From Clostridium sp. CAG:780 (lineage in GTDB: Bacteria; Bacillota; Clostridia; TANB77; CAG-508): a stretch of DNA of 64,000 nucleotides. A program made the translations under genes and the position numbers. The notes below the pieces were generated by a model that saw only the letters and a list, made by a program, of their open reading frames with translations, searched no databases and had not been told where the DNA came from. The first letter of the stretch is position 1, and each line of letters opens with the position of its first letter. Location: assembly GCA_000434195.1 (NCBI GenBank), contig HF994471.1:26135-90134 (forward strand). The letters are read 5' to 3'. This document shows, in pieces, positions 4,278-44,096 of the stretch.

Positions 4278-4296
4278 TTCATCTCCTATTTATTAA

Positions 4297-4986: not shown

Positions 4987-5001
4987 CTTCCTTTATATTT
5001 A

Positions 5002-7183: not shown

Positions 7184-7242
7184 ATATTCACCTCCAATTT
7201 ATCAAATTACGAAAGATAAAAATTTGAAAAAATGTTGTTTTT

Positions 7243-7371
7243 TCAATAGTTTCGGCTAGTGTTTAGATAATTCGTACTTTCCCAGTTAATATTCATTTGT
7301 TTTTGCACTTCTTTTTTATTTTCATTAATTTTTATTTCTTGTCTTTTTTTCCTTTTTTGATACATATCCAT
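7243..7371 (-). CDS. Small basic hypothetical protein (41 aa)
   Basis: Minus-strand ATG at 7371 follows a GGAAG ribosome-binding site. The product MDMYQKRKKRQEIKINENKKEVQKQMNINWESTNYLNTSRNY lies next to the phage-like genes. Confidence 0.25.
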   Translation of the reverse strand: MDMYQKRKKRQEIKINENKKEVQKQMNINWESTNYLNTSRNY

Positions 7372-7442
7372 TTTAATCACTTCCTTTTCATTTTTTATTC
7401 TCCATTATTTACAATAAATTCAACTTATAAATATCTATTCCT

Positions 7443-28958: not shown

Positions 28959-29819
28959 ATGAAATTCTCGATCATCCTGCCTTGTTTCAACAGTAAGTCG
29001 TACATCAACAAGTGTGTTGATAGCATTCTCTCTCAGTCCTTCTCGGATTATGAGTTGATTGTTATTGACGATGGTTCTACTGACGGAACTTCTCAGATTT
29101 TGGACGAATACGCATCGACCTATCCTCACATTCATGTCCACCATTTTAGCAATGCTGGTGTTTCTATCGCTCGGAAGCGTGGCATCTCCCTTGCTACTGG
29201 TGAGTACTCTATCTTTGTAGACTCTGACGACACCATTGAACCTAATCATCTGGAGAATCTCAATGCGGGTATCATTAAGCACAACCATCCTGATATCATT
29301 CGGTGTCAGGTCAATCTGATTAATGACTCTCCTCACAAAGATTCTCAGCGGTACAATTTCACGTCGGGTATTGACATTCTTAATTCTGGAATCGACTCTC
29401 TGAAAATGTGGTCCATTCCCGGTAAGAAGTATGCAGTTTACTGGCTCTTTGCTTTTAAGACCAGTATTTTCTCGAAGGTTACGTTTCATCGTACCTTGAG
29501 ATGTTACGAAGATGTGGCACTGATTCCCATTCTGATTGCCAGCTCTCCTCGCGTCGTTACTATTAATCATGCTGGTTATAACTATCTTTGCAATAACTCT
29601 GATAGTTTGACCAATACTATTAGTCTCGAGGCTGAGTGTCAGCGGGCTGACGATTTCTATGAGGCCTGTCAGTTTGCCATCAAAAATTTTTCTAATCTTG
29701 AGCAGGTGTCGGAGGCCGATATTTCCTTCTTTGTTGACGACTACAATCGTCGACTCTTGAACAAATACGAGTCTCTGCCTGAGGTTCTGAAACCTCAGTT
29801 TATTCACTGGTTCAAGTAA
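28959..29819 (+). CDS. Family-2 glycosyltransferase (GT-A fold), on a compositionally foreign island of about 40-45 % GC
   Basis: MKFSIILPCFNSKSYINKCVDSILSQSFSDYELIVIDDGSTDGT has the DxD motif. The GC content and codon usage (CTG, TCG, CGG) differ sharply from the flanking DNA, which is under 30 % GC. Confidence 0.85.
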   Translation: MKFSIILPCFNSKSYINKCVDSILSQSFSDYELIVIDDGSTDGTSQILDEYASTYPHIHVHHFSNAGVSIARKRGISLATGEYSIFVDSDDTIEPNHLENLNAGIIKHNHPDIIRCQVNLINDSPHKDSQRYNFTSGIDILNSGIDSLKMWSIPGKKYAVYWLFAFKTSIFSKVTFHRTLRCYEDVALIPILIASSPRVVTINHAGYNYLCNNSDSLTNTISLEAECQRADDFYEACQFAIKNFSNLEQVSEADISFFVDDYNRRLLNKYESLPEVLKPQFIHWFK

Positions 29820-29828
29820 ATAAACGCA

Positions 29829-29869
29829 AATTCCCTATTTCTTAATTAGAAATAGGGAATTATTTTTAT
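29829..29869 (+). terminator. Rho-independent terminator
   Basis: AATTCCCTATTTC-ttaatta-GAAATAGGGAATT-atttttat. Confidence 0.8.
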
Positions 29870-29909: not shown

Positions 29910-30749
29910 TTATTTTAATCTAAATTTATGACTTATTTTATAATAATATGGTTTAATATCTGTTAATATATCTTTTACCCATATAATGTTTCCGTCATTA
30001 TCTTTATATTTTATGTTTGGAAATGTTCTTAACATTTTTTCATCTGTAAATATTGTGTTTGACAATTTTTGTACAAATTTGTTTTCTAAAACTTCCTGAC
30101 TTACCATGAGATTTTTGTCTTCTACAAGATTTAAGTCATATTTTTTTGTAAATCTTGTATAAAATACTTGAAGTCCAAAAGCTGTTATTAGCAAATCTAA
30201 AATTAATAATATTGTTCCACCTATTGTTAGTACACTAAATAGTTTTTTAGGAATTTTGTCTATAAATTTTTCTATATATGGATTTATTAACCTCATTAAT
30301 ACTAGTGCTAATATTCCCCAGAATATTGTAAATAACAAACATATTCTGCCATTTATATCAAATGGCATGTTTGAATAATCCCACCATTTAATATGAAATA
30401 CTATTTCTCCTAGCCAGCTTATCACATATTCTACTATTGAGCCTTCTATTGCTCCTGCTAAGAATAATGTCCAGTTTTTCTTTTTAAATTTTTGAAGCCC
30501 TGGTATCATTACTGCCGCACCAAGTCCATATATACAGCAGAATGGTCCGTACAAACAGCTTTGTCTGCTCTCAATTACTCCTTTTGTAAGCATTCCAAAT
30601 ATAGTTTCTATTATAAATCCTAGAAAACTATATATTATAAAGTAGGCTAGTATTCTTTTAAATGTAATTTTTACGACTGGATCTTCTATTACTATTTTGT
30701 TTTGTATTTTTTCTTTTATTTTTTCTTCTAATTTTATTTCATCTATCAT
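29910..30749 (-). CDS. DUF1113-family polytopic membrane protein (putative ABC-transporter type IV family)
   Basis: FLGFIIETIFGMLTKGVIESRQSCLYGPFCCIYGLGAAVMI matches the conserved core of that family. It is not a prepilin peptidase. Confidence 0.45.
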   Translation of the reverse strand: MIDEIKLEEKIKEKIQNKIVIEDPVVKITFKRILAYFIIYSFLGFIIETIFGMLTKGVIESRQSCLYGPFCCIYGLGAAVMIPGLQKFKKKNWTLFLAGAIEGSIVEYVISWLGEIVFHIKWWDYSNMPFDINGRICLLFTIFWGILALVLMRLINPYIEKFIDKIPKKLFSVLTIGGTILLILDLLITAFGLQVFYTRFTKKYDLNLVEDKNLMVSQEVLENKFVQKLSNTIFTDEKMLRTFPNIKYKDNDGNIIWVKDILTDIKPYYYKISHKFRLK

Positions 30750-30763
30750 ATTCTTTCTCCAAG

Positions 30764-32575
30764 TTAATATCCAAAATATGCATTTACTAAATACAAATCA
30801 TATCTAGCTCTTGCCAAGGCAGTTAGATAATATTTTTGTAGGTTCACTCCATTTAAGTTTGTAATGTTTACTTCATCTCCATTTAAGTCTGTTATATTTC
30901 CATACGATTCTCCATATTCGTCATGGTCTCTTCCGAATTTGTCAATTACTTTTCCTGCTATAATGTCATCTGTTGAGTATGCATCTGATGCTGCAACTAT
31001 ACAGTCATAGCATGCTTCATATGGTTGAGGATAGAAATAAGCATATTTTCCTTCGTTTATGTTTACTTCATTACTCTCTAATATTTGAGCAAGAGCATTT
31101 ACATCTTCTCCTGTTAGAGATATAGATTTTCTCTTAAAATCTATTGTTGAATATGCTCCCTCTAATGTCATTCTTCCATAATTTAAAGCTGTAATTAAAG
31201 CTTTACATCCTGGCTTATGATATTCTATTTTTCCTTCATCATCTTTTGATAATATATATATTGCATCATTTGATACTGTTTCTTTGTTTGCATTGTTTGA
31301 AACAACACAGTAATTATTATATATTTTTCCTCCTATTGGGAATCCTTGTAAAAATACCAATTCACATATGTTGTTTTCAATGTTGTCCCAATCTCCTTCT
31401 GTTAATTCTGGCATCGAGAATTCATATCCTGCTGACGAATGATCTGTATATGTTTTCATAGCTTGGATTAAATTTGTTTCTATTGAATATCTTATTACAT
31501 TTCTTCTTTGTTCATTAAATGGTGAACTTGAAAGTAATGGATTGTTCTGTGTTCCTCTTGTATCAAATATTCTAGCATTATCTAATTGTGTTGCAAATCT
31601 CTCTGGTATTTTATATCCTTCTGCATCACATGCCCATTGTTGAGTTACATTTTTTAAATTTTCATTTACCCATATTGTGAATTCAGCTGCTTCTTGATAA
31701 AATTTCTTTGCACTTTCTGAACTTAGTTGCTTTGTTGCTGCATCATAGTAAATGTTTAATGCATTTACTGTTTCTGATGAACTTATATAATCTTTTCTGT
31801 ATTGAGAACTATATTTAAAATATTTTCTACTTTCGTTTGTAGGATTTTTTTCTAAATATATTTTTTGGTTATTATATACCACATATTGGTATCTTCCTTG
31901 ATATTTTGCTTGGTTGATTGTTTCTGCACTTGCATCATCATCTAATGTTACTAAGTTTTCTTCTAGCACTTCACTTAAATTAACGTAATCAGCTATTCTT
32001 GCTGGGTCTTGAGCTATTTGCTCTGCCTCATCATATGATATTAAATGTCCTGTTTTTGTAACATAATTTCCTTCTACTGTGCCTATAATTGTTATGGTAT
32101 TATCAAGTGTATAATTTACCACAAAATCATTGTGTCTACTATTTATATCAATATATCTGCATGAGTATGATGTAAATGGTTTTAGCCCGTATTTAAAAGC
32201 TTGTAATTCTGTGTCATAGTAATTTGTGTATATATGGTAGCCATCATACAAAGTGAACACAATAGCTGGTGTGTATTCTTTTAGTTCCTCTTTTGTATAC
32301 CCCTTTACTTCTAGGTTTGTTGCAAGAGAAGAATAGAATACGTTAATAGATGCTTCTATGTCTCTTATTTTCGAGTTTGCTATATCTGAAAACTCGTTGT
32401 TTTGAGTGTTTATTTGAAACGCTCTAATAGAGTCATGTGCAGCATTTACTAAATTTGCATCATATATGGTTTGTGTTTTTATTGTTTCCAAATGTGAGCT
32501 TACATAATTTGATAATACTAACGATATTGGAAGTATTATTATTATAAAAATTATCGCTATGTGTTGTAATTTCAT
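30764..32575 (-). CDS. Large (603-aa) N-terminally anchored extracellular protein, last gene of the pilus-like operon (candidate tip or adhesin component)
   Basis: A single N-terminal transmembrane segment (IAIIFIIIILPISLVL) is followed by an extracellular domain rich in Tyr and Asn. I recognise no further motif. Confidence 0.35.
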   Translation of the reverse strand: MKLQHIAIIFIIIILPISLVLSNYVSSHLETIKTQTIYDANLVNAAHDSIRAFQINTQNNEFSDIANSKIRDIEASINVFYSSLATNLEVKGYTKEELKEYTPAIVFTLYDGYHIYTNYYDTELQAFKYGLKPFTSYSCRYIDINSRHNDFVVNYTLDNTITIIGTVEGNYVTKTGHLISYDEAEQIAQDPARIADYVNLSEVLEENLVTLDDDASAETINQAKYQGRYQYVVYNNQKIYLEKNPTNESRKYFKYSSQYRKDYISSSETVNALNIYYDAATKQLSSESAKKFYQEAAEFTIWVNENLKNVTQQWACDAEGYKIPERFATQLDNARIFDTRGTQNNPLLSSSPFNEQRRNVIRYSIETNLIQAMKTYTDHSSAGYEFSMPELTEGDWDNIENNICELVFLQGFPIGGKIYNNYCVVSNNANKETVSNDAIYILSKDDEGKIEYHKPGCKALITALNYGRMTLEGAYSTIDFKRKSISLTGEDVNALAQILESNEVNINEGKYAYFYPQPYEACYDCIVAASDAYSTDDIIAGKVIDKFGRDHDEYGESYGNITDLNGDEVNITNLNGVNLQKYYLTALARARYDLYLVNAYFGY

Positions 32576-32589
32576 ATGTTTACCTTTCT

Positions 32590-32640
32590 ATAAAAAAACA
32601 GCTCTTGGACTTTGCTACATATTACAGTCCATAAGCTGTT
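32590..32640 (-). terminator. Intra-operon hairpin plus U-tract (partial terminator or attenuator) between the 176-aa and 603-aa genes
   Basis: On the minus strand, AACAGCTTATGGACTG-taatatgtagcaaa-GTCCAAGAGCTGTT is followed by TTTTTTTAT. Confidence 0.45.
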
Positions 32641-32653
32641 ACATTATACATTA

Positions 32654-33184
32654 TTAGTTTTTACCATTTACAGTAACAATTCCTGCATATTGTACAGCAA
32701 TTTGATACGTGTCATTTCCTGCAATTCTATAAAAGAAGTTTCTTAATGTCTGTGCTATTGTTGTATTTGTATTTTTAACAGTTACAGAGACTCTATCTCC
32801 TTCTTTTAACGTTATTTTATGTTTTTTATTGTCTTTTAAAACGCTTTCTAATTGACTTGTGTATAGGTTATAATAAATGTTTTCACCTATTTTAGTTGTT
32901 TCTGCTTGTGTTGTTTTTACTCCTATATTTTCATCCATTATTTGTACCATTAACTCTACATCAAAAGCATTTCCTGTTGATGTAATTGTTTGAATGTACT
33001 TATCATAATCGTCTAATGTTAATTCTCCAGTTGTTCTAACTTTATCTACAAAATCAGTAGTAGCTGTTTGTACTGTTAATTGTGAGATGTTATCTGATTT
33101 TTCAGATACAGACATCAAAGGGAAAACAAACATTAGCATTGCTGCTAAAAATATAGCTATAATTGTTACAAAACTATCTCCCAT
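32654..33184 (-). CDS. N-terminally anchored small protein (pilus-associated, minor-pilin-like)
   Basis: MGDSFVTIIAIFLAAMLMFVFPLM is followed by a soluble domain. The gene sits within the cluster. Confidence 0.35.
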   Translation of the reverse strand: MGDSFVTIIAIFLAAMLMFVFPLMSVSEKSDNISQLTVQTATTDFVDKVRTTGELTLDDYDKYIQTITSTGNAFDVELMVQIMDENIGVKTTQAETTKIGENIYYNLYTSQLESVLKDNKKHKITLKEGDRVSVTVKNTNTTIAQTLRNFFYRIAGNDTYQIAVQYAGIVTVNGKN

Positions 33185-33237
33185 TTTCTTTGTTTCCTTT
33201 CTTTTTTATAGTATTTGCTGTTTAAAATCATTTGTTA

Positions 33238-33927
33238 CTAATTTATCATCACATAGGTGATTACTTTTTTAGTAGTAGTCTTATTTCCTCTGATACCCGA
33301 GTTTTCGTCATCTTCTGCTTTTACAGTTACAACTTCTCCAACCATTTCAACAAATTTAGCCTGGTTAAATCTTTTTGCAAATCCTATTGAAGTGTAATCC
33401 ATGTTTTCATATGTTTCTCCTGCTAGAATCGCATCCAGATTCTTTTTGACCTCTGATATTGCTCCAGTCCAAGGTTCTCTTCTAGATTGTTCTTCTTTTA
33501 AATCAAAAGAGCAAATGCTTGTACTTGTACCAGTATCATCAAAATCGTTTTTATACCCAGTGCTCCATAGTTCTGGATCTGTTTGGGTTTTGTATATTTC
33601 TATTGGTCTTCCTATTGAAACGTTAGTTATTTTTCCATCTGAGTCATAAGAAGCAGTTCCTGACCTAAATGTAATTTTTATGTCTTCTTTACTATATCTA
33701 TAGAGAGTAGGGATTACTGTTTCCATCCCTACTATTCTATTTCCTAAATTATCTACTTCTATCCCATTAGACTCTGCATAAGAATAATATTCTGTTGGGT
33801 CTGTTAGATGTAGCATTAAGTCTGATGTTTGTCTAGCTTGTGAAAAGATATACATTGTTAAGCTTAATGCTAATACTAATAGTATAACAGCAAATGCTAA
33901 CATTGAAGCTTCTACTGCATTTTCCAT
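33238..33927 (-). CDS. Pilin-like paralog 4 (N-terminus MENAVEASMLAFAVILLVLALSLTMYIF)
   Basis: It shares the conserved MEN-x-x-x-A-x plus hydrophobic helix N-terminus with three neighbouring genes. AAGGAAAAG ribosome-binding site. Confidence 0.45.
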   Translation of the reverse strand: MENAVEASMLAFAVILLVLALSLTMYIFSQARQTSDLMLHLTDPTEYYSYAESNGIEVDNLGNRIVGMETVIPTLYRYSKEDIKITFRSGTASYDSDGKITNVSIGRPIEIYKTQTDPELWSTGYKNDFDDTGTSTSICSFDLKEEQSRREPWTGAISEVKKNLDAILAGETYENMDYTSIGFAKRFNQAKFVEMVGEVVTVKAEDDENSGIRGNKTTTKKVITYVMIN

Positions 33928-33950
33928 AATTTACTTTTCCTTATAGTTTA

Positions 33951-34382
33951 TTATTGTTTTACTATGTAAGCAACTGTTATATATCCTGATTTATTGTATC
34001 CGAAAGATACTTTGTATGTTAGTCCTGTTTTATATGATGCTACTGAATAATCTTTAACTTTATCTGTTGTCCAATTAGCATCATCAGGATCTCTTGTTGC
34101 ATTTCCTGCTGCATCTTCGATTAATATCAATCTAGATGTATCATCTTGATTTACTCTGTTATGATTGATTATTGCACCAACTAATTGTCTTACATCTGTT
34201 CCTGTTCTAACTCCTTCATAGCTTATAAATTCAGCATTATATGCTTGTGCTTTTTGTGGATCTAGGTTTGTTCCTTGTGCTGCTCCTGATGCTTGTTGGT
34301 ATATATACATACCTAACGCGATAATTAAAATTGATAATATTATAGCTCCTGCTATAATTAATGCTTTACTTGCATTCTCCAT
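33951..34382 (-). CDS. Pilin-like paralog 3 (143 aa), a candidate major subunit
   Basis: The N-terminus is MENASKALIIAGAIILSILIIALGMYIY. It has the strongest ribosome-binding site of the paralogs (AAAGGAGGA) and an AT-rich promoter-like region upstream, so I take it as a candidate major subunit. Confidence 0.45.
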   Translation of the reverse strand: MENASKALIIAGAIILSILIIALGMYIYQQASGAAQGTNLDPQKAQAYNAEFISYEGVRTGTDVRQLVGAIINHNRVNQDDTSRLILIEDAAGNATRDPDDANWTTDKVKDYSVASYKTGLTYKVSFGYNKSGYITVAYIVKQ

Positions 34383-34467
34383 AAATAAATCCTCCTTTAG
34401 TTTTTATATTTAATATATTTTTTAATTTTTATATTTCCTTATGAAATATAAAATATTAATAACTTAA

Positions 34468-34896
34468 TTATATTTGCTCAAAATACATGTATTTAACATT
34501 GTTTGTATTTTGATGATATTCTATTTTTGTGCATTTAAAGCTTGTTGCTCCAAAAAGTATTAAAAATTTTTGTTCTCCTGATTTTTCTATTGCTTCCATT
34601 TTTATTATTTGTTCTTGCTCTTTGAATTTAATTTCTATTATTATCGAGTTTTTATTATTATCTATATAATGTCCTTTTTCGTCTTTATCTACTGCATTTT
34701 TTTCATTGCTGTCTACTGCTTTATTTATAATAGATATTACATCTGTTCCTAAAACTTCTTGGTTATAAAAGCTTTGATATGCCCTATTATTCTGACTGCT
34801 TTCTTTTTCTGCTCTTTTTATGTTATAAAAGCTATATGTAATAATTGCTATTACTACCAGAAAAATAGCTACTATAAATATAATATTTCTCTTCAT
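34468..34896 (-). CDS. N-terminally anchored small protein (143 aa) interleaved with the pilin-like genes
   Basis: The likely start MKRNIIFIVAIFLVVIAIITY is at 34896; the ORF track extends to 34944. Confidence 0.35.
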   Translation of the reverse strand: MKRNIIFIVAIFLVVIAIITYSFYNIKRAEKESSQNNRAYQSFYNQEVLGTDVISIINKAVDSNEKNAVDKDEKGHYIDNNKNSIIIEIKFKEQEQIIKMEAIEKSGEQKFLILFGATSFKCTKIEYHQNTNNVKYMYFEQI

Positions 34897-34971
34897 ATCT
34901 GCCTTTCTTAAAATAATTATATCATTATGTTTTTTATTATGCAATCATTATTTGACATATTTTTTAATATT

Positions 34972-35487
34972 TTATACTGGTTTAAATATCACTTTTTTTA
35001 CTCTTTTAGTATATTGATCTATTAGAACACTACAACTATAATCTTTTACTTGATAGGTTCCATCTTGCATTGTTCCAATTTCACTTTTCATAAATTTTAT
35101 ATAATCATCTGTTGATAATGTTTCAAAGTTACGCTCTCCATTAATAGCTGATGTATCAATAGATATATAGAATGTTCCTTCCTTCTCTTTTTCTTCAAGA
35201 CTATCCGTTCCAAAGTCATAACTTTGATTGTTTTGTTGTGCAAGATTTGCCAAGCTCACTATCTCACTTGCTTTGCAAGTATTTTGCCAATTTCCATTTT
35301 CATCTTTATAGCTCTCATATTGGGTAAACTTGGTATTAAATTCAGTAATGTTTTTTTCTTCAAGCCTTGCTTGTATTAGAGAACTATAATCCCCAAAAAC
35401 AGTGTATAAATATGCAATCAATGACAATATTAGAATTCCTACTAAAACTGAAGCTGCCATTAATAATGCTTTACTTGCATTTTCCAC
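34972..35487 (-). CDS. Pilin-like paralog 2 (N-terminus MENASKALLMAASVLVGILILSLIAYLY; GTG start)
   Basis: A GTG start at 35487 follows an AAGGAGGA ribosome-binding site. The N-terminus is conserved and the C-terminus is variable. Confidence 0.45.
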   Translation of the reverse strand: MENASKALLMAASVLVGILILSLIAYLYTVFGDYSSLIQARLEEKNITEFNTKFTQYESYKDENGNWQNTCKASEIVSLANLAQQNNQSYDFGTDSLEEKEKEGTFYISIDTSAINGERNFETLSTDDYIKFMKSEIGTMQDGTYQVKDYSCSVLIDQYTKRVKKVIFKPV

Positions 35488-35507
35488 TTTTATAGTCCTC
35501 CTTGCTT

Positions 35508-36146
35508 TTATTTATCTTTGAACATTATTTTTATAATTCTACCATTTCCAGAATCATATTCTGTTACGTCGTCATATTTAAATGTCTTTCTTGCAAAATC
35601 AGTTTGTTCTTCCACATATTTTTTATAAGTTGTTCTGTTTGTTTTTAATTTGGTATATTCCGATTCAGAGAAATCTGATCTTGCTTTTACTGTCTTTTCA
35701 GTTTCTTTATCACTTAACTTAGACCAGTACGAAATGCTTTTTCCAAATACAGTAATGTCTGCTTCTTTTATCTTTTTTACTAGTTTTTTATATTGTTGGT
35801 CAAGACTTGTACCAGAATATGTTCCTGCTACAAGGTATTGCCCATTAAGCACTCCTGTACTTATTTTTACTTCTAACTCTATTTCTTGATAACCATCTAC
35901 AGCTTTTCTTTCATTATAGTTTATTACTTCATTTGCTAGTGAAAGTATTTCACTTCCATAAACAGTATCTTTAGCATATGACTCAAAATTTATATTAAAT
36001 TTCGATAATTGGCTTGCTTTTTCATTTTTCTGCTCAATATTTTTTTGCTCTCTTATTTGATTATAACCAAATACTAGAAGTGATAATATAAGAACTCCAA
36101 TTAATACACTGGCAGCTATTTCTAAAGCTTTTGTCATATTTTCCAT
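35508..36146 (-). CDS. Pilin-like paralog 1 (N-terminus MENMTKALEIAASVLIGVLILSLLVFGY)
   Basis: The N-terminal about 28 aa are conserved. The gene lies immediately downstream of the TadB/C-like gene. Confidence 0.45.
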   Translation of the reverse strand: MENMTKALEIAASVLIGVLILSLLVFGYNQIREQKNIEQKNEKASQLSKFNINFESYAKDTVYGSEILSLANEVINYNERKAVDGYQEIELEVKISTGVLNGQYLVAGTYSGTSLDQQYKKLVKKIKEADITVFGKSISYWSKLSDKETEKTVKARSDFSESEYTKLKTNRTTYKKYVEEQTDFARKTFKYDDVTEYDSGNGRIIKIMFKDK

Positions 36147-36161
36147 AGTTCATATTCCTTT

Positions 36162-38246
36162 CTAATATTGATTTTTCATTGCTGTCATAGTATTGAATGA
36201 TGATGTCATACTTGTTAATCCTATAAATACTAGTGGAATAATTAGATATCCTACAAATAGTCCAACCATTGGCGCAAATCCTATTACTTTTCCAATTAAT
36301 CCCTTCTTTGAGATTAATCTGTCATTTGATTCTTTTCTTCTTGCTTGATAATATTCTCTTTCTGAATCTAGTTCATCAAATGCTTCTGCGATCGGTATTT
36401 TTTCTACTGCAGCTTGCATGCTTTCTATTAATCTTATAAATTCTTTGTAGTTTATTTCATCTTTCATTTGTTCTAGAGCTTCCCAAGGTCCACTCTCATA
36501 GTTGTTTACACATCTTGATATTGGCTCTCTAAATATATTTGAATATCTTTCTAGCCATTCTAATATCATTTCTACGTTTACTCTCTCTATTCTCATAAGC
36601 ATCAATATGATTGTCTGGAATTGCATTACTTCGTTTTCCATTTCCATCTTTCTCATTTTTGCCTGGAAGAATAATAGTGCTACTGGTAAATTGTATCCAA
36701 TTACTGCAAATACCATTGCTAAAATCATTTCAAACCAGCTTAAATACTCGCTATTAACTTGTCTCAATTTTTTCAAAACTCTTTCTGCCGCTGTTTTAAT
36801 TTCATCTGGTTGTGCATTTGCATAATCTTTTGATTTTTTCATTGCTTTTTCTATATCTTCTTGAGTTGTTTTTGTTTTTCCTTTAAACATGTCTAAGAAT
36901 CTATTGTCACTCGCAGTTAGCTCTTCTGCTTTTTTCAAGTCTTTTCCTGTCATTTCTCCTACTAGATTGAATGTTGATGTAGGTTCTGTGTATATGTATT
37001 CTATCTGCATTTTATGTAGGTATCCAAATATTAGTAAGGAACCTATAAATACAGTTATTGTTAATAATATTCTTCTTTCATATATCCAATGAATTTTATC
37101 TTTTGAAGCAGCATCTTTCATAAGATTCTTCATTTTTCTTCTTTCTTTTGTTCCATCTTTTGGTATGAATAAGTCTACGATTTTCTTTACTAATGGTATT
37201 TTGTATATTTTTTCTTCCCAAGGATTATCTGTTTTTGTATCAATAGTTGTTGAACCATTGTCTTTTAGTTTTCTTGTTAAAATATAACATACAAATGTTA
37301 GTATAACCAATAGTAATTGAACTATCATACCTTGTTTTCCATAGTAAAACGATTTTGTGAATGAGAATTCTTTTACTGCCCAGTTTTTTATTGGTTCCAA
37401 TGCTAGTAATGGCACAATCGCTATTACTGATAAGCTTTGGAATACATAATTTAATTTATCTCTTTTTAATATTTCTAGTTGCATCTCTTGGCTTATATTG
37501 TTTAAGTTCTTCAAGTATAAAGATGTTTTATCTACTGTTCTATCTCCAAATTCTTTCGTAAGATACGATATACCAGCAAATTCTTTTAAGAAGCTGTTTG
37601 GTGCAATGTCGTAATATTTTTCTAATTCTCCTTCCGGATCATCAGATATTAATATTTCGTATATTTTCTCTGCTTGTCTAGACATTTCTGGTGCACTATC
37701 ACCTTGTGCAACCTGATATATTGCCTCTTCAACCATGTTAAACTCGTGGTATGCATGTCTTATTTCTGCAAAGAAATCTATTTGTTGAATTAGTAGCTTA
37801 TTGTCTATTTTGTCAACCATTCCATCTACTAATGTATCTATCATAAATAATTCAAATATCAGTAAAATCGATAGCAATAGTCCATTGCTTTTTGTAATAA
37901 ATATTATTGCTAGTGTTATTGGAATTATTATCAACAATGCTTTTGTTAATATTTCCGAAGTCTGTTTTCTTGTTAAATACTCATCATCAATGTTTATTAT
38001 TTCTAGTCTTCTTCTTATTTTAAATAGATATCTTTTTATAAAAGGAGACCTCAAATATCTAACATATAGCTTTTGATATAATATCTCTTTCGAGAATTTT
38101 TGCTCCTTTGTTCCTTTTCTTAATTGTCTAATTTGTACTATGTCTGATGATTGTGTTTTCTTTTTTAATAACAAGAATGCAACTACAATACCAGCAAGTA
38201 TCACTGCTGCTCCAATCATCATGTATAATATAATATTTCCATTCAT
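36162..38246 (-). CDS. Fused TadB/TadC-like platform protein (two T2SS-F-like domains, 694 aa)
   Basis: Polytopic membrane protein with two cytoplasmic helical domains, sited next to the secretion ATPase. Its 694-aa length fits a TadB-TadC fusion. Confidence 0.5.
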   Translation of the reverse strand: MNGNIILYMMIGAAVILAGIVVAFLLLKKKTQSSDIVQIRQLRKGTKEQKFSKEILYQKLYVRYLRSPFIKRYLFKIRRRLEIINIDDEYLTRKQTSEILTKALLIIIPITLAIIFITKSNGLLLSILLIFELFMIDTLVDGMVDKIDNKLLIQQIDFFAEIRHAYHEFNMVEEAIYQVAQGDSAPEMSRQAEKIYEILISDDPEGELEKYYDIAPNSFLKEFAGISYLTKEFGDRTVDKTSLYLKNLNNISQEMQLEILKRDKLNYVFQSLSVIAIVPLLALEPIKNWAVKEFSFTKSFYYGKQGMIVQLLLVILTFVCYILTRKLKDNGSTTIDTKTDNPWEEKIYKIPLVKKIVDLFIPKDGTKERRKMKNLMKDAASKDKIHWIYERRILLTITVFIGSLLIFGYLHKMQIEYIYTEPTSTFNLVGEMTGKDLKKAEELTASDNRFLDMFKGKTKTTQEDIEKAMKKSKDYANAQPDEIKTAAERVLKKLRQVNSEYLSWFEMILAMVFAVIGYNLPVALLFFQAKMRKMEMENEVMQFQTIILMLMRIERVNVEMILEWLERYSNIFREPISRCVNNYESGPWEALEQMKDEINYKEFIRLIESMQAAVEKIPIAEAFDELDSEREYYQARRKESNDRLISKKGLIGKVIGFAPMVGLFVGYLIIPLVFIGLTSMTSSFNTMTAMKNQY

Positions 38247-38284
38247 ATTTTAGGCTTTTGCACCTCCTTTTTAGATGATGTTTA

Positions 38285-40204
38285 TTATGCTTCTTCTTTC
38301 ATCATATCAGCATCTCTATGTGCTTCAATTCCCCAATTTTTCTTAACGAATTTCTTGAACTCTTCAGCATCTGTATCATCCATGTTGTTTAGCATAGCCT
38401 TGATATTTTCTTCTGATATTGGGTTTGTTAGTACATATGTACCATCATGATATTCTAGTATATTTCTGTATTGGTATAATTCTCTGTTTGTTGTTTTTGT
38501 AAAGAACATTGTTGCATTATCCATGAATTTTTCTATTTTCTTTTCTGTTGTTTTTTCTTTTCTGTAATCAAATGTATATTCGTTTCTTTCTTCTACTGGT
38601 ATACATTCTGTTATTCTTTCTATGTATCTTCTTCCTCTGAAGTCCTTTACTAAGTGGATATCAAAGTTTAATACTTGTACAACTTGCTCTTCTGCTGTTC
38701 TTTCATCTTTGAACACTCCTGCTCTAAGCATTGAGTTTCTTAGTGCTGTAACTAAGTCTGGGAATGTTTTAGCGTGGTGAGTAAATAATGTAAATTTAGA
38801 AGCAACCTGTGCAGATTGGATCATCCAAGATGCTACGGGGTCAGTTGCAACCTCACCGATGATGTTAACAGAACCATCAGTCTTTTTCTGAACGTCCAAG
38901 CAGGCCTGTCCAGAAATTGTTTCTGTTTCACGCATTGATAATATGTTTCTTGTTGGATATATTTTTCTTAAGTGAAGCTCGAATGCAGTTTCTGTAATAC
39001 GAAGGTTCATTGTTTCGTATATGTTTTCTATCATCGCCATAAGCATTGTTGTTTTACCACAACCCTGCTCACCAGTAAGCGATATGATTCTTGCTCCTTT
39101 TACTAAGTATTTTAATAAATCTATTGTTTCGTCTTTTCCAGGGAATTTTACTATTTGTTCTAGTGTTGCTCTCTTTACGTCGAACTTTCTTACGAAAAAT
39201 GCCCATGTTTCTGACATGCTTGGTCTAACAACAACGACACGAGAACCGTCTTTCATTTCATTGATTTTGTAACCATTTGTGTCTGATAATTGTCCTGGGT
39301 TATTGAATTTGTATATATTCTGACAAACTCTCTTTAATTCTGCTTCTGTTCCAAATGACAAGAATGCAAGTCTTATTGATTTACCACGGAACATTATCCA
39401 AATACTATCACAAGCACGTGGTACTTTGTGTTCTACTATTTGTCCTAAATAATCTCCATCTGTTTGTGCTACTTGGCTTAAAAAGCTTTCTGGAAGTCCA
39501 GATACACCACCAGATATACCATCTATGTTCATGTCTCTTATTTCATCTATACTGCTATATCCTTTGTAATGTTGATATATTCTTTGTACAACTATGCTTA
39601 ATTTATCTTGGAATGTTAATGCAAAGTTTTCTTTTTCATATATATCTGAAATTTCTTCTGGCGTTATTACGTAAGAAGGTTTTGATTCTCCTGCCACATA
39701 TTTTAACTCGTCTAATTTGTATTTCTTTATTATTTCTGATAAAGCTTCATATCCGAATTCAGATTTATACATATATAGTATAATATCAAATTTATCTTGT
39801 GCTGTTAAAAGTGATGGTACATCAAAAGGAATTGCTTTTGATACATTTATCTCGTCAACTCCATATTCGTTGTAAAGCATGTCATATATTAATTCCTTAA
39901 TATATTTCTTATCATTTACATCTCCATATGTACAGCCTTTTAACGCTTTTTTCAATTCGTATTTCTTGTTCTTTCTTCTTTTTAATTCTTCTTCTGAAAG
40001 ACCTATATCATATAAATTGATTTTTGTGATTTCGTCTAATCTCTTCTTTACAAATTCTGTCATTGTGCTTAATGTGTATGTTGCATCATCTACTTGAATT
40101 TGTTCTTCAACTTCTTGGTTTTGTTTGTTTGTTATGAACTTGTGAACAATCGCAACTGCTACACCTATTACAATGGCCATTAATATTAGATTAGTTATAT
40201 TCAT
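38285..40204 (-). CDS. CpaF/TadA-like secretion ATPase (VirB11 superfamily) with an N-terminal TM anchor and a roughly 300-aa N-terminal extension
   Basis: Walker A LTGEQGCGKTT, a Walker B-like NIIGEVATDP and a His-box-like FTHHAKTFP are present. The N-terminus is MNITNLILMAIVIGVAVAIV. Confidence 0.65.
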   Translation of the reverse strand: MNITNLILMAIVIGVAVAIVHKFITNKQNQEVEEQIQVDDATYTLSTMTEFVKKRLDEITKINLYDIGLSEEELKRRKNKKYELKKALKGCTYGDVNDKKYIKELIYDMLYNEYGVDEINVSKAIPFDVPSLLTAQDKFDIILYMYKSEFGYEALSEIIKKYKLDELKYVAGESKPSYVITPEEISDIYEKENFALTFQDKLSIVVQRIYQHYKGYSSIDEIRDMNIDGISGGVSGLPESFLSQVAQTDGDYLGQIVEHKVPRACDSIWIMFRGKSIRLAFLSFGTEAELKRVCQNIYKFNNPGQLSDTNGYKINEMKDGSRVVVVRPSMSETWAFFVRKFDVKRATLEQIVKFPGKDETIDLLKYLVKGARIISLTGEQGCGKTTMLMAMIENIYETMNLRITETAFELHLRKIYPTRNILSMRETETISGQACLDVQKKTDGSVNIIGEVATDPVASWMIQSAQVASKFTLFTHHAKTFPDLVTALRNSMLRAGVFKDERTAEEQVVQVLNFDIHLVKDFRGRRYIERITECIPVEERNEYTFDYRKEKTTEKKIEKFMDNATMFFTKTTNRELYQYRNILEYHDGTYVLTNPISEENIKAMLNNMDDTDAEEFKKFVKKNWGIEAHRDADMMKEEA

Positions 40205-40228
40205 GGTATTTTCTCCTTTCGCTAAGGC

Positions 40229-41074
40229 TTATACTTTAGCTTGTAGTTCTTTTAACTTAAATAATATGTTATCACATGTCTTTTTTGCTTCTTGTATAAA
40301 TAATACATTTTTATCTGTTTGATCTGTTAAGCTTCTATATTTTAAAAAGTAATCTGCAACTTTTCCTTCTGAAGCTGCTTCGCTGAACAAAGTGTTATAT
40401 GATATTGCCGATATTGTTCTGCTTTCTTTTAAATATCTGCTTGTATTTTTTGTGTTGTATTTTGAATATCTGTCATATTTTCCTAATAATAATAATGATC
40501 GATTCATTTTAAATACTGGATTTTTTTCTCTTAGTCTATCAAATTCGTTCAACGAATCCATGCCTTGCTTAAATGTTATTACTATTGCATCCGATGCTTG
40601 AAGAATTGCTCTTTTGTGTTCTTCCTTCATTCTTTTATCTATATCTATAAAAACTATATTATAATTTTTATCAGCAATTTTAACTAGTTCAGGATAGTAC
40701 TGTGTAATTGAATCATACGCATCTCTATGAGTTGTGCTTGGTGCTACTAGTACATCCAATCTTTCTCTAAAAACTACCTTTGCATAGTCTGCAACAACGT
40801 TTGTAGATGTTCTATTGCTTTGAAGAACTTTTACCAATCCTTCTATTCCGTTGTTCATTCCGACGTCTCTGGTTCTGGTTCCTAATATATCTTTTAACGT
40901 GTCATCTTTTTCTTGTTCCCAAAAGCAATTTTCTACTGTTCTATCTTTGAACCCAGTTGCTACTTCTAATATTTTGAAGTTATGATTGATAGCCATAAGT
41001 GTTGCTATTGCTACCGAAGCCAATGTTTGGCCTGTTTCCTTTTCGCTATCACTCCAAAAAGATACTATTGCCAT
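40229..41074 (-). CDS. CpaE/TadZ-like ParA-fold protein with a degenerate Walker A (paralog 2)
   Basis: VSFWSDSEKETGQTLASVAIATLMA replaces the canonical KGGVGKTT motif, so ATP binding is doubtful. Confidence 0.4.
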   Translation of the reverse strand: MAIVSFWSDSEKETGQTLASVAIATLMAINHNFKILEVATGFKDRTVENCFWEQEKDDTLKDILGTRTRDVGMNNGIEGLVKVLQSNRTSTNVVADYAKVVFRERLDVLVAPSTTHRDAYDSITQYYPELVKIADKNYNIVFIDIDKRMKEEHKRAILQASDAIVITFKQGMDSLNEFDRLREKNPVFKMNRSLLLLGKYDRYSKYNTKNTSRYLKESRTISAISYNTLFSEAASEGKVADYFLKYRSLTDQTDKNVLFIQEAKKTCDNILFKLKELQAKV

Positions 41075-41075
41075 A

Positions 41076-41774
41076 TTACATTCCTCTTTCTAATTGTTTA
41101 AATGCTCTTTTTACAGCATTTGATCTTTCATCATGCACTATTTCTGATGCTAGATAAACGAGTGCATCTTTGTATTCTGTGCTTAATCCTTTATATTTTA
41201 TTTTTTCTGTTCTTTGGTTTTCCATTATTACTTCTTGATCACTTGTTTGTAATGGAAAATATATTTTTTCGTCTTGCCATTTTATTTTATAACCTAATGA
41301 TAGATAGTTTAGATATTCATCTTCCTCATCTGACATTATATTTGAAAAGTATATTTTCGTTAATTGTACCGGTAATTTTATTCCACTCAAAACTTCTAGT
41401 CCTTTTTTTAGTGAGAATAAATCTGCAGAAGTTACAAAATAGTTTCTATTTGCTTCATATATTCCAAAGCTCTCTATTGATTCAGCTTTATCCATGTCTA
41501 TCATTATATAGTCATATGTTAGGGCTGCCGTTTCTGGCATCCCTAAATATCTTTTTATTCCATTGTAGTCTGAAAAGCCAACAGCTACATCTATTCCTTC
41601 ATACTCTGTTACATACGACATCGTCGGGCTAATAACTGGAACAACGTATTTAGCTTTTTGATTTACAGTTGAGTCAATTATTAATACTTTTTTGCCCATC
41701 TCGACTAAAATTCTAGAAACATATATCAAGAAATCTGTTTTGTCAAATGTTCCAATAAAGCCTATTTTCTCCAT
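41076..41774 (-). CDS. CpaE/TadZ-like ParA-fold protein with a degenerate Walker A (paralog 1)
   Basis: IGFIGTFDKTDFLIYVSRILVEMGKKVLIIDST has MinD/ParA-like topology but lacks the GKT/S motif. Confidence 0.4.
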   Translation of the reverse strand: MEKIGFIGTFDKTDFLIYVSRILVEMGKKVLIIDSTVNQKAKYVVPVISPTMSYVTEYEGIDVAVGFSDYNGIKRYLGMPETAALTYDYIMIDMDKAESIESFGIYEANRNYFVTSADLFSLKKGLEVLSGIKLPVQLTKIYFSNIMSDEEDEYLNYLSLGYKIKWQDEKIYFPLQTSDQEVIMENQRTEKIKYKGLSTEYKDALVYLASEIVHDERSNAVKRAFKQLERGM

Positions 41775-41799
41775 TGTTCCCTCCGATTATTTTAATTCT

Positions 41800-42705
41800 T
41801 TAATTTCCTGCTAAAGAATCTAAGTAAGATTTTCTTTGTTCTGTTGTTGTTGATATATCTTTTGCTACTCCTGATTCAACTCCTGATGTTGCTTGATTTT
41901 CATCCACATCAGAAACTTCTGAATTTATGCTGTCTCTGATTGATCTATAGGTTTGATATCTATTGTACATTGCTGTTTTAGCTTCTTGTACAACATTTGG
42001 ATTTTGAGTTATTAAGTTGATTGTTTCTGTACTTGGTACATATGTAGGTGTTGCTTTTTCTTGTGTTCCTGGCTCTACATATTTTGCAGTATACAACATT
42101 GCACCTTTCATTTTATAAGCTTCAACTATTGCATTTGATAAAGATACTGTTTCATCTTCTGTTAATTTCATCCATATTGTATTTAAAGAATCAACACCTT
42201 CAATTTGTGGTATTTCTATTTTCTTTTTAGATATAACAATATAATCTAGTCCAGAAGGCATTCTTAGTCTTATATCAATATAATCCTCAGATGCGATTTG
42301 ACTTGATATTTTTATCATATTATATTCTTGAACTCTTAAGTCATTTGTAAGTGGACTGTCTGATTCTGTTATCATAGAATCTGTTATTATTGTTCCTTTT
42401 GTTAAATCTATTTTAGCTATTGTGTTTTCTGTTAAAGCAGATGCTTTTACTGTATTTGCTGGTGCAGCTGATTTATCTGTTGTTACAGTAGCTAATTTAC
42501 TTGCATCTATTGTATCTCCTGATTTAACATCTGTTTTTAAAGCATATGTTATAACAAGGCTTGCTTGTCTTTCTTCTTCAGCCTTCTTCATGTTTAACAT
42601 ACTGTAAAGTAAGAAAGCAACAACGATTGCCATTATTAAAAATGTTATTAATACTCCTAATATAAATGAGTTTCTCGCTTTTTTTTGCATTGGGTTTGTA
42701 GCCAT
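41800..42705 (-). CDS. CpaB/RcpC-like pilus assembly protein (N-terminal TM plus SAF-like domain); first gene of the operon
   Basis: The N-terminal anchor ILGVLITFLIMAIVVAFLLY is followed by a SAF-like region and a second beta-rich domain. AGGAGGAG ribosome-binding site. Confidence 0.4.
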   Translation of the reverse strand: MATNPMQKKARNSFILGVLITFLIMAIVVAFLLYSMLNMKKAEEERQASLVITYALKTDVKSGDTIDASKLATVTTDKSAAPANTVKASALTENTIAKIDLTKGTIITDSMITESDSPLTNDLRVQEYNMIKISSQIASEDYIDIRLRMPSGLDYIVISKKKIEIPQIEGVDSLNTIWMKLTEDETVSLSNAIVEAYKMKGAMLYTAKYVEPGTQEKATPTYVPSTETINLITQNPNVVQEAKTAMYNRYQTYRSIRDSINSEVSDVDENQATSGVESGVAKDISTTTEQRKSYLDSLAGN

Positions 42706-42739
42706 AATTTTCTCCTCCTATATGTCAATATTTTGACAA

Positions 42740-42768
42740 AATATATTACTTATTTAATTGTACAACAA
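42740..42768 (-). promoter_or_regulatory. Putative sigma-A promoter of the pilus-like operon (TTGTTG, 17-bp spacer, TATATT on the minus strand)
   Basis: The minus-strand sequence is ttTGTTGtacaattaaataagtaaTATATTttgtc, about 30 nt upstream of the ATG at 42705. Confidence 0.35.
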
Positions 42769-42769
42769 A

Positions 42770-42802
42770 ATATATTAAAAAACAACAGATATTATCTGTT
42801 GT
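42770..42802 (-). terminator. Rho-independent terminator (palindrome ACAACAGAT-aat-ATCTGTTGT plus T-run) after the upstream gene
   Basis: On the minus strand the palindrome is followed by TTTTTTAATATA. Confidence 0.7.
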
Positions 42803-42841
42803 AATTTAACTTTAACTTTTCTGTAATATTTTTGTAATACT

Positions 42842-43297
42842 TTATCTTCTATACCAATTTATTCCATTTCCATAGCCTCTGTTATTATTACTATTGCACA
42901 TGCAATTTCTGTTTCTATTGCCACATCCACAACCACTTGAGTTGTTGTTGTCATCATTATCGTCGTCATTATCATTGTTTATAATTTCGTTTGCATCTAA
43001 TGTATCTGTTCTTATACGGTTTGCCCTTATGTTATTTGCTCTTAGATTTCTTATAGTAAGTCCATCATTGTCTACAACTCTGCATATAAACTGAACAATA
43101 CTTGCTACAATAAAAGCTAAGATTGTATACACTATAGCATTTACTAAGAAAGATTCATCAAATGCAGCAAATGCTACAATTAAGTATATTGCAAAAAATG
43201 TTGCCGCTACTAACAATGGACATTTAAGTATTTTTTGGAACACTACTGCCAATATTATTGTTGCTATTGGTAAAGCAAAAAATAATAATAAATCCAT
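42842..43297 (-). CDS. Polytopic membrane protein with a C-terminal Asn/Asp-rich and Cys/Gly-rich tail (SSGCGCGNRNRNCMCNSNNNRGYGNG)
   Basis: The likely start MDLLLFFALPIATIIL is at 43297 with an AAAGGAG ribosome-binding site. There are four transmembrane helices. The tail motif resembles the tiny Cys/Gly peptides at 60377-60646. Confidence 0.45.
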   Translation of the reverse strand: MDLLLFFALPIATIILAVVFQKILKCPLLVAATFFAIYLIVAFAAFDESFLVNAIVYTILAFIVASIVQFICRVVDNDGLTIRNLRANNIRANRIRTDTLDANEIINNDNDDDNDDNNNSSGCGCGNRNRNCMCNSNNNRGYGNGINWYRR

Positions 43298-43358
43298 ACT
43301 AATTACTCCTTTTATCTTTTTTATATATAATATGGTTTTATTATTATTTATGTTACTC

Positions 43359-44096
43359 TTAGTCATATTTAACTTCTACTAGATAAAGACCATGCGCTGG
43401 AAGCGTCTTTCCTGCTCTTTGCCTATCTTTTGACTCTATTATTTCTGGTATTTCTTCTGGTCTAATTTTTCCAAGTCCTACATCTAATAGTGTTCCTGAT
43501 ATTATTCTAACCATGTTATACAAGAATCCATTTCCTGTAAGTTCTATGATTATTTTTTCTCCTTCTTGTTTTACTATCGCTTTGTAAATTGTTCTAACAC
43601 TATTTTTCGAACTAGTCCCGCTCGATTTAAAAGCCTTAAAATCGTGTTCTCCTTCAAAATACTTAGAAGCTTGTTTCATTTTTTCAACATCTAGTTTGAA
43701 TGGATATGAATATTCTAAATTTCTATATATTGCAGTTCCACATTTTGAATTGTTTATTATGTATCTATACGTTTTGTGTTTTGCATTATATCTACTGTGA
43801 AACCTCTCATCAACCTCTTCTGCCTCTTTTATCACTATGCTATTTTTCAACTGTGAATTTATTGCAAGAGGTATTTTTTCTATTGATATTTGAGAATTTG
43901 TCTTAAAATTTGCTACTTGTCCAAGTGCGTGAACTCCTGCATCAGTTCTACCTGAACCAATTAGATCAACTTCTTCTTTTGTAATATTATAAATAGCTCT
44001 TTCTATTTCTCCTTGAATATTTAGTTTATTGGGTTGCTTTTGCCATCCATTATAACATTTTCCATCATATTCTATTGTTAATTTTATATTTCTCAT
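43359..44096 (-). CDS. truA: tRNA pseudouridine(38-40) synthase TruA
   Basis: MRNIKLTIEYDGKCYNGWQKQPN and GSGRTDAGVHALGQVANF are TruA motifs. Confidence 0.9.
   Translation of the reverse strand: MRNIKLTIEYDGKCYNGWQKQPNKLNIQGEIERAIYNITKEEVDLIGSGRTDAGVHALGQVANFKTNSQISIEKIPLAINSQLKNSIVIKEAEEVDERFHSRYNAKHKTYRYIINNSKCGTAIYRNLEYSYPFKLDVEKMKQASKYFEGEHDFKAFKSSGTSSKNSVRTIYKAIVKQEGEKIIIELTGNGFLYNMVRIISGTLLDVGLGKIRPEEIPEIIESKDRQRAGKTLPAHGLYLVEVKYD

Follow-up and report, generated by a model that had tools for sequence, protein, structure and literature searches.

A divergent Tad-like gene cluster in TANB77 Clostridia and its relatives on plasmids of other Bacillota

We examined a stretch of 64,000 nucleotides from Clostridium sp. 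CAG:780 (contig HF994471.1, positions 26,135 to 90,134), referred to here as the window, that carries a minus-strand cluster of twelve genes. These are called g1 to g12 in the order of transcription, and the gene that follows them is g13. We think it likely that g1–g12 are the TANB77 version of a distinct, deeply divergent branch of the Tad (type IVc) filament machines that is found across the Bacillota. A sequence-only reading of this DNA had taken the cluster for an undescribed system for filament formation, secretion or a competence-like process. The system is not undescribed, because a cluster of the same 12 genes, whose proteins agree in size and assignment, has been published and one of its products has been tested experimentally (PMC11680825). 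The remaining interest is mechanistic and lies in a membrane-anchored TadA, a platform protein beyond sequence recognition and a pilin-like family that lacks a family-wide cleavage site.

The genes of the cluster are listed here (aa, amino acids; TM, transmembrane).

41800..42705, minus strand: g1, CpaB/RcpC-like bitopic protein of 301 aa with a TM helix at residues 15–33 and a SAF domain; orthologue of protein 927 (PMC11680825)
41076..41774, minus strand: g2, ParA/MinD-like (TadZ-like) protein of 232 aa with a degenerate P-loop; TadZ by structure in PMC11680825
40229..41074, minus strand: g3, second ParA/MinD-like (CpaE-like) protein of 281 aa without the Walker A lysine; its Thermobacillus composti homologue is annotated ParA
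38285..40204, minus strand: g4, membrane-anchored CpaF/TadA-like secretion ATPase of 639 aa with a TM helix at residues 6–24, a family-specific domain of ~240 aa and the core from about residue 265
36162..38246, minus strand: g5, polytopic inner-membrane protein of 694 aa in the platform position with ~8 TM segments; gene callers start it ~14 codons later
35508..36146, minus strand: g6, MEN-type pilin-like protein of 212 aa
34972..35487, minus strand: g7, MEN-type pilin-like protein of 171 aa with a GTG start
34468..34896, minus strand: g8, small N-terminally anchored protein of 142 aa from MKRN, as given by gene callers; the open reading frame (ORF) list reaches 34944 via a TTG
33951..34382, minus strand: g9, shortest MEN-type protein (143 aa) and candidate major subunit, with a strong ribosome-binding site; duplicated in many species
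33238..33927, minus strand: g10, MEN-type protein of 229 aa with swapped charges (D/E at position 6, K at 9)
32654..33184, minus strand: g11, conserved anchored protein of 176 aa (MGDSFVTIIAIFLAA..FPLM), the most conserved of the small proteins
30764..32575, minus strand: g12, large anchored protein of 603 aa, orthologue of 'pilin 938'

A gene cluster shared by TANB77 and plasmids of other Bacillota

To place the cluster among its relatives, one genome per species was scanned; at least 570 had a relative of the ATPase encoded by g4, and the best 80 were used as related loci. All 80 are metagenome-assembled genomes of uncultured gut Clostridia, two of them named Candidatus Merdicola and Ca. Scatovivens. 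The order of g1–g12 was strictly colinear in 80 of the 80 species, which answers the call of the sequence-only reading for a synteny map across Clostridia. The window ATPase is 100% identical to a protein recorded for Clostridium sp. CAG:780. Identity to the window over these loci was 77–92% for the ATPase, 52–85% for the platform and mostly 26–54% for the small proteins, a gradient that is as expected for a machine with exposed subunits.

Kim et al. (2024; Nat Commun 15:10726, PMC11680825) described a 12-gene "pilus" cluster in 122 of 129 TANB77 species, represented by genes 927–938 of HRGM_Genome_2725, and called it exclusive to TANB77. The published proteins have 358, 231, 280, 640, 693, 165, 170, 143, 146, 237, 178 and 621 aa, with one TM helix on the ATPase and eight on the platform. 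AlphaFold2 (AF2) and Foldseek assigned them to CpaB, TadZ, CpaE, TadA, TadC plus TadB and, for the N-terminal 25% of 938, TadE/PilV. Recombinant 938 was found to activate dendritic cells via TLR4 and to make anti-PD-1 treatment more effective in mice, and the cluster is the proposed molecular link from this uncultured gut order to a better response to checkpoint blockade. The window holds the same twelve colinear genes, with sizes (paper/window) of 231/232, 280/281, 640/639, 693/694, 143/142, 146/143, 178/176 and 621/603 aa and topologies that match Table 1 of that study, one TM helix on the ATPase and eight on the platform, and it likewise comes from uncultured gut Clostridia with reduced genomes. 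It differs in coming from another species of the clade and is therefore another species' copy of a known, hypothesised pilus locus. The study mentions neither a prepilin peptidase nor leader motifs, nor does it take up the MEN N-terminus; the later papers that cite it are reviews. Thus the cluster had already been described as a putative pilus locus and partly characterised, whereas a canonical pilin, which would make it a standard Flp/Tad system, was not found in the operon.

Homologous modules were also found outside TANB77. We searched plasmids with the ATPase by tblastn and typed 63 plasmids with MOB-suite; 33 records cover at least 80% of the length of the ATPase. On megaplasmids of cultured Bacillota the ATPase is 37–58% identical over more than 90% of its length. 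The carriers include T. composti pTHECO01, Paenibacillus spp., Alkalihalophilus pseudofirmus OF4, Sporosarcina, Lysinibacillus sphaericus pBsph, plasmids of C. argentinense and C. botulinum, and Butyrivibrio proteoclasticus pCY186. In the plasmid module, genes for a SAF protein and two ParA-like proteins come with those for the ATPase, for a membrane protein of ~680 aa annotated as 'hypothetical', for small anchored proteins and for g11-like and g12-like proteins. BLASTP against T. composti gave identities of 58% for g4, 39% for g5 over 677 aa (E=5e-167), 32% for g2 and 31% for g1. The TANB77 cluster is not a TANB77 invention, because homologous modules are present on plasmids and elements of other Bacillota. 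As judged from these sequence comparisons, the module is a Bacillota-wide, largely mobile-element-borne Tad-like branch of which the TANB77 cluster is a chromosomal member, a point that is new relative to PMC11680825. A literature search found no published study of the plasmid-borne modules.

The plasmid modules have the same gene set, with an ATPase of ~600 aa and NASKAL-type, g11-like and g12-like subunits, and their genes are annotated SAF, ParA, TadA and hypothetical. Their ATPases have a TM anchor on pBsph and pCY186, whereas those of pTHECO01 and C. botulinum p12/29 have none. By contrast with the TANB77 cluster, they lie on mobile elements, have fewer subunit paralogues and a shorter g12 homologue (320–366 aa), and are usually followed by SLH-domain and giant DUF5704 proteins; genes for cell-wall hydrolases and for GGDEF and HD proteins come in addition. 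Several of the carriers are cultured and tractable, including L. sphaericus C3-41 (pBsph), Paenibacillus polymyxa M1, B. proteoclasticus B316 and A. pseudofirmus OF4, so that assembly, processing and structure can be tested without culturing TANB77.

These settings bear on the alternative that the apparatus belongs at heart to plasmids and integrative and conjugative elements (ICEs) of Gram-positive bacteria, as a pilus for mating, aggregation or DNA transfer, with a domesticated, chromosomal copy in TANB77. The homologous modules on megaplasmids fit this idea, and the T. composti module lies ~10 kb from genes for a type IV coupling protein and a replication-relaxation protein. The elements that carry metagenomic relatives encode a Tn916-type Xis and integrase, a Rep3 replicase, toxin-antitoxin proteins, NlpC/P60 hydrolases, HD proteins and signal peptidase I, with the copies adjoining either the Xis and integrase or the replicase and a toxin-antitoxin pair. 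Cell-wall hydrolases and a single-stranded DNA-binding protein are also encoded near modules. However, neither VirB4 nor a relaxase was seen in most neighbourhoods, MOB-suite called 58 of the 63 plasmids non-mobilizable, and the TANB77 copy lies amid housekeeping genes (truA, cdaA) without hydrolases and an integrase. An adhesin would also be equally expected on mobile elements. We consider a mating or transfer apparatus unlikely on balance.

Other features of the mobile elements were seen in these loci. Giant DUF5704 proteins of 1000–1200 aa follow the plasmid and metagenomic modules (L083, 20264–23854; L084, 16826–19939; L082, 15830–18985), and an SLH-domain protein precedes DUF5704 on two plasmids. 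The DUF5704 proteins, which were not mentioned in the literature searched, may serve as adhesins or be cargo. Plasmid-borne relatives have genes for GGDEF and HD-domain proteins immediately beside the module (L083, 23941–25731; L085, 2026–2586 and 24354–25403), which hints at cyclic-dinucleotide control of the plasmid-borne modules. In addition, C. botulinum pCLK (L088, 7980–11405) has a second Tad-like set with an ATPase 24% identical to g4. In sets of this type, which are on plasmids with botulinum neurotoxin (BoNT), the ATPase is followed by two proteins of ~300–360 aa and several tiny ORFs. This differs from the g4 module, so clostridial plasmids carry at least two distinct Tad-like lineages.

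Machinery and anchored proteins

The ATPase g4 had CpaF as its sole meaningful relative in the PDB (E=2.7e-10, residues 269–539). Its T2SSE score of 24.7 bits is just under the cut-off of 24.9, and the TadA-family model TIGR03819 gave 36.7 bits. Across 56 diverse relatives the Walker A motif (G378–T386), E409, E451 and H477, which cover the catalytic Glu and the His box, do not vary. Although weak, the match is specific, and we regard the predicted assignment of g4 to the PilB/GspE/TadA family of secretion ATPases as solid. Relatives in 378 clusters at 50% identity aligned with g4 over its full length, including the N-terminal extension (E <1e-30), and the N-terminal TM helix is present in 97 of 119 full-length relatives. 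By these alignments g4 forms a distinct ATPase subfamily. The anchored CpaF/TadA ATPase with an N-terminal extension in the sequence-only reading was thus borne out, with the TM helix at 6–24 and the CpaF-homologous part from about residue 265.

The proteins encoded ahead of g4 gave fainter signals. g1, previously read as CpaB-like, scored 21.8 bits with SAF (cut-off 21) and 37 bits with the CpaB model TIGR03177 (cut-off 71; N-terminal part only); it is conserved in the 80 related loci, and its plasmid counterparts are annotated as SAF domain proteins. For g2 and g3, single-sequence library signals were faint (AAA_31 at 0.04 and MinD at 0.04). A family profile of g2 gave a marginal match to MinD (E 0.036), and that of g3 found exclusively SIMIBI-class NTPases (CooC, ParA, Get3, Soj and MinD) at 0.01–1, all of them marginal. 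On direct reading the P-loops are degenerate, GTFDKTD in g2 and SDSEKETGQT in g3, in line with the earlier description of two CpaE/TadZ-like proteins with destroyed Walker A motifs.

A fused TadB-TadC platform, as the sequence-only reading had it, was not reproduced for g5 by sequence methods, although the ~8 TM segments and the position of the gene fit a platform. The first half of the g5 orthologue matched TadC and the second half TadB by AF2/Foldseek (PMC11680825). The predicted TadB-TadC identity of g5 derives solely from these published structure-prediction matches.

Each of g6–g12 has one N-terminal hydrophobic helix, and g6, g7, g9 and g10 share the MEN-A-x-K-A-L start and the helix, so that the seven anchored proteins of the sequence-only reading, four of them with a common N-terminus, were all recovered. 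The N-terminal 25 residues of g9 are invariant in 72 homologues. An AF2 model of g9 (pLDDT 80) has an N-terminal helix at residues 2–34 and a small head. The sequence-only reading had asked for a test of a pilin-like N-terminal helix with a beta-sheet head; the head of g9 is alpha/beta, and g9 had no match in the PDB and none to a pilin fold. Neither g5 nor g6–g12 had a match in curated libraries, and a family profile of g12 found no PDB match. For 67 pilin-like proteins from TANB77 and distant modules there was not one match to a pilin family, among them Flp, TadE, N_methyl and archaeal Pilin_N. In the cluster there is also no match to Flp_Fap, as expected of an Flp-type pilin of ~50–80 aa, or to TadE/TadF (PF07811), and the G/xxxxEY motif and the leader with G at −1 and F at +1 are absent, as had been noted. 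These data support the idea of a type-IV-filament-like machinery with non-canonical substrates, and the MEN/NxxK proteins may constitute a new pilin-like family.

The two last proteins of the cluster differ in their conservation. g11 is 41–80% identical across most species loci and has homologues in every plasmid or mobile-element module compared; in g12 the part in common with the plasmid homologues is the N-terminal ~190 aa. Within one species, among eight strains with an identical ATPase, g11 was 100% identical and g7, g9 and g12 were the most variable (93.6–100%). Strain-level hypervariability of the major subunit was considered and rejected, with g9 96.5–100% identical among these strains.

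As a comparison, the Tad/Flp systems (type IVc) of Caulobacter (Cpa), Aggregatibacter (Tad) and Bifidobacterium breve (Tad) likewise combine a CpaF/TadA-clade ATPase with a CpaB-like SAF protein and ParA-like TadZ/CpaE, for which the window has g1, g2 and g3 as candidates, with the machinery genes first and then the subunits and pseudopilin-like proteins, and monoderm versions also lack a secretin. Unlike these, the window has an ATPase with a TM anchor and a family-specific N-domain of ~240 aa, two ParA-like genes with ruined P-loops, and one putative fused platform of ~690 aa without a T2SSF sequence signal. Its subunits have 140–230 aa and a globular head versus Flp peptides of ~50 aa, and a G/XXXXEY motif, a TadE Pfam match and a nearby TadV are missing. 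The subunits also have likenesses to archaeal type IV pili (Epd-like, adhesion), which within TANB77 extend to a short tail, a K followed by a small residue and a long hydrophobic helix, with no E5 and a globular head beyond the helix. However, a FlaK/PibD/EppA-type peptidase and Pfam matches to Pilin_N and the class III signal were not found for the window system, the small residue at −1 is not kept across the wider family, and the g9 head is alpha/beta rather than an Ig-like beta-sandwich.

The lack of any match to a pilin fold or family, the small alpha/beta head and an ATPase that is membrane-anchored, unlike known pilus ATPases, are what would be expected if no pilus were made. The cluster would then encode a short pseudopilus, a secretion machine or a competence-like machine, or the MEN proteins would be bitopic assembly factors similar to PilN/PilO. 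The large secreted partners of the plasmid versions (DUF5704 and SLH proteins) could be cargo of such a machine. By contrast, four to eight paralogues per module with one invariant helix and fast-diverging heads are the pattern of major and minor pilins and not that of stoichiometric assembly factors, and no ComEA or ComEC was found among the window proteins scanned. We therefore regard a system without a pilus as improbable.

The N-terminal motif and the proposed assembly of the subunits

The N-termini of the MEN proteins were compared across the 80 species, where 313 of 319 orthologues start with M-[ED]-N-A-x-K-A-L-x-[IM]-A-G (position 6 being K, D or E), which is far beyond chance. Positions 6–8 are K-A-L in 81–100% of the g6, g7 and g9 orthologues and K-G-L in one relative; in the g10 family position 6 is D/E and position 9 is K. 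Distant homologues have no small residue ahead of the helix (MENSTKLILAG, MNENVGKLIISG, MSNVTKLIMLAIG and MKSITKMVLMG), and the prefix ahead of the conserved Asn varies (MSTNASKAL in Thermobacillus, MGENARKAL in C. botulinum). What the whole family shares is thus M-x-N-x-x-K, a tail some six residues long, ahead of a helix that has a Gly near position 11–12; as far as the aligned N-termini tell, this signature does not represent a peptidase site. A class III signal peptide, with G/A at −1, a hydrophobic alpha1N and usually E5, is not seen, although the hydrophobic N-terminal helix is invariant. Helices at the core of filaments typically show such invariance across orthologues and paralogues; Sec signal peptides typically do not. 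The loss of the small residue in distant relatives argues against a classical A24 cleavage site. Because the family has no common cleavage site, we lean to subunits that are uncleaved or matured by another route; the MEN subunits are probably used as they are made or else cut, though not by a classical A24 peptidase encoded in the cluster. It may then be asked whether type IV filaments can form without prepilin processing.

None of the polytopic ORFs in the window resembled an A24 peptidase. The ±10 kb flanks of the 80 species loci (~1.6 Mb) contained no conserved polytopic membrane family and no GxGD[..]K motif in a membrane context, and no A24 peptidase is annotated in the annotated plasmid and mobile-element neighbourhoods of the module. 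A peptidase domain hidden in the cluster proteins was also considered, but none of them has a G-x-[GA]-D motif. The earlier statement that no A24 gene is in or next to the cluster therefore holds. The tadV gene of B. breve is also unlinked. The sequence-only reading had counted the missing peptidase gene as an oddity; this is weak evidence, because the peptidases of type IV filament systems are often shared or unlinked, and classes such as MSH have none in the locus (PMC6668835).

Cleavage by signal peptidase I was considered as a general mechanism, prompted by recurrent S26 genes in the mobile-element versions and an A-S-G-A stretch in g9. We judged it unlikely for the N-terminal helix, which is invariant and in paralogues lacks AXA sites. 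The small signal peptidase I (S26) genes lie 8–12 kb from the ATPase (L097, 4153–4674; L099, 1–377; L085, 25958–26446), and they bring to mind the pilin maturation of the RP4 TraF type.

The motif can be read in another way, in which the system is a conventional Tad pilus in all but sequence and the MEN proteins, as archaeal-like class III prepilins, are cleaved at the A7–L8 bond by an A24 peptidase whose gene lies elsewhere in the genome. The archaeal prepilin site is [K/R]-[G/A/S]|hydrophobic, and the K-A-L of g6, g7 and g9, with its one K-G-L, resembles it. Tad systems derive from archaeal Epd-like pili, and a peptidase that is unlinked or shared would not be unusual (PMC6668835). However, the g10 family has D/E at −2, distant homologues have no small residue before the helix (MENSTKLILAG, MSNVTKLIM, MKSITKMVL), E2 and N3 hardly vary, although a leader that is discarded would not usually be so conserved, and no A24-like gene was found in the window or in the flanks. 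We hold this explanation to be possible but rather doubtful.

More speculatively, the MEN/NxxK proteins could be 'leaderless' pilins with a cytoplasmic tail of about six residues that are polymerised without a prepilin peptidase. The polymerising machinery would be a TadA tethered to the membrane and a platform too divergent to be recognised as T2SSF, and the result would be a fourth style of type IV filament, independent of the peptidase. It might have arisen on plasmids and ICEs of Gram-positive bacteria, perhaps as a pilus for mating or aggregation, and been domesticated by TANB77, where the tip protein would contact host TLR4. We put this forward tentatively.

For the divergent Tad branch that we favour, the following assembly is proposed. 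A hexameric CpaF/TadA-like ATPase, g4, would be tethered to the membrane by its own N-terminal helix and would work with two catalytically degenerate ParA-like organisers, g2 and g3, and the CpaB-like SAF protein g1. The ATPase would drive the large polytopic platform g5, which would pull bitopic subunits from the membrane and stack their invariant N-terminal helices into a surface filament. These subunits would be a pilin-like family with the minimal cytoplasmic tail M-x-N-x-x-K, g9 being the putative major subunit and g6, g7 and g10 minor ones. g11 and g12 may be TadE/TadF-like initiator or tip proteins, and g12, which lies behind a conserved attenuator, could be displayed at the filament and be able to meet host cells.

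Several observations weigh against this proposal. Proof of g5 as TadB-TadC was sought at the sequence level, and all methods were negative. There was no T2SSF signal for g5 by Pfam, NCBIfam, a phmmer search of the PDB or a family profile against the PDB, and 0 of 27 homologues matched PF00482 (T2SSF). With hhalign, the probability of a match of g5 to Rhizobium TadB and TadC was below 1%, and its N-terminal and C-terminal halves did not match each other, so that there is no internal repeat. A single-sequence structure model of g5 (pLDDT 36.6) was uninterpretable. In the g9 model a low-confidence linker parts the helix from the head, whereas classical pilins are continuous. Within TANB77 the K-A|L positions are compatible with class III cleavage of the archaeal type, and an A24 peptidase may be encoded in trans elsewhere in the genome. 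Finally, the published study has no electron microscopy and the filament was never observed (PMC11680825).

Transcription signals and surrounding genes

The window has 13 successive minus-strand ORFs with short gaps between them, in DNA of ~29% GC, and g1–g12 are colinear over 30764–42705 on the minus strand. This agrees with the single operon and gene order of the sequence-only reading. The features at its boundaries, and the gene that follows, are these.

42782..42802, minus strand: terminator-like hairpin with a 9-bp stem followed by the T-run TTTTTTAATAT; it ends the upstream DUF2651 gene and insulates the operon
42740..42768, minus strand: promoter-like site, TTGTTG, 17 nt and TATATT, read from the sequence and without statistical support
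42712–42719, minus strand: strong ribosome-binding site AGGAGGAG ahead of the ATG of g1, a sequence read
32592..32640, minus strand: internal terminator/attenuator-like hairpin and T-run in the spacer between g11 and g12, from folding and positional conservation
29910–30749, minus strand: g13, PF06541 (DUF1113/CmpB) membrane protein that starts 14 bp after g12
29829–29861: bidirectional terminator beyond g13

The upstream terminator that had been described was thus found at 42802–42782. A promoter at 42740–42768 is plausible; the proposed sequence is present, but in this AT-rich window promoter-like matches are at chance level (88 found versus 82 expected). The internal attenuator placed at about 32600 held up better. 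The 78-nt spacer between g11 and g12 has a folding energy of −22 kcal/mol, and a perfect inverted repeat of at least 8 bp occurs within 90 nt 3' of g11 in 33 of 65 related loci compared with 3.3 expected from shuffles. This conserved hairpin suggests that the large g12 protein is expressed at a lower level than the subunits encoded upstream of it.

The membrane protein g13, correctly read as DUF1113-like (PF06541, 160 bits), is probably co-transcribed with g12 in this species. It was considered as a substitute peptidase or a component of the system and rejected because it is missing from all 80 related loci; g13 is a lineage-specific neighbour outside the system. A PHROGs search gave no phage relationship for the cluster proteins.

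Elsewhere in the window there are genes for Spo0A (23036–23827, minus strand; Spo0A_C and receiver domain) and the SpoIVB peptidase (60706–62007, minus strand). This reduced-genome gut lineage thus keeps core sporulation regulators, and it is reasonable to speak of a spore-former lineage, in line with the sequence-only reading. Two diadenylate cyclases, CdaA (44173–45111) and DisA (62846–63919), and a GGDEF protein (12067–13164), all on the minus strand, lie within the same 64 kb. A low-GC stretch (0.23–0.26) at 4000–8200 on the minus strand has genes for a KilA-N protein (6257–7183), a DUF1963 protein (7443–8210) and a fusion of ASCH with an aminoglycoside-phosphotransferase-like domain (5002–6276), and may be the remnant of a mobile element. 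Two large minus-strand ORFs, of 832 aa (13190–15688) and 517 aa (48949–50502), had no Pfam match at E ≤0.001. On the opposite (plus) strand, a family-2 glycosyltransferase gene (28959–29819) lies where the GC content is higher (0.35), is overlapped by a long antisense ORF and may have been acquired recently. Directly upstream of the operon, the DUF2651 membrane protein (42842–43366, minus strand) has an unusual C-terminal tail rich in Asn, Asp, Gly and Cys (...NNDNDDDNDDNNNSSGCGCGNRNRNCMCNSNNNRGYG...).

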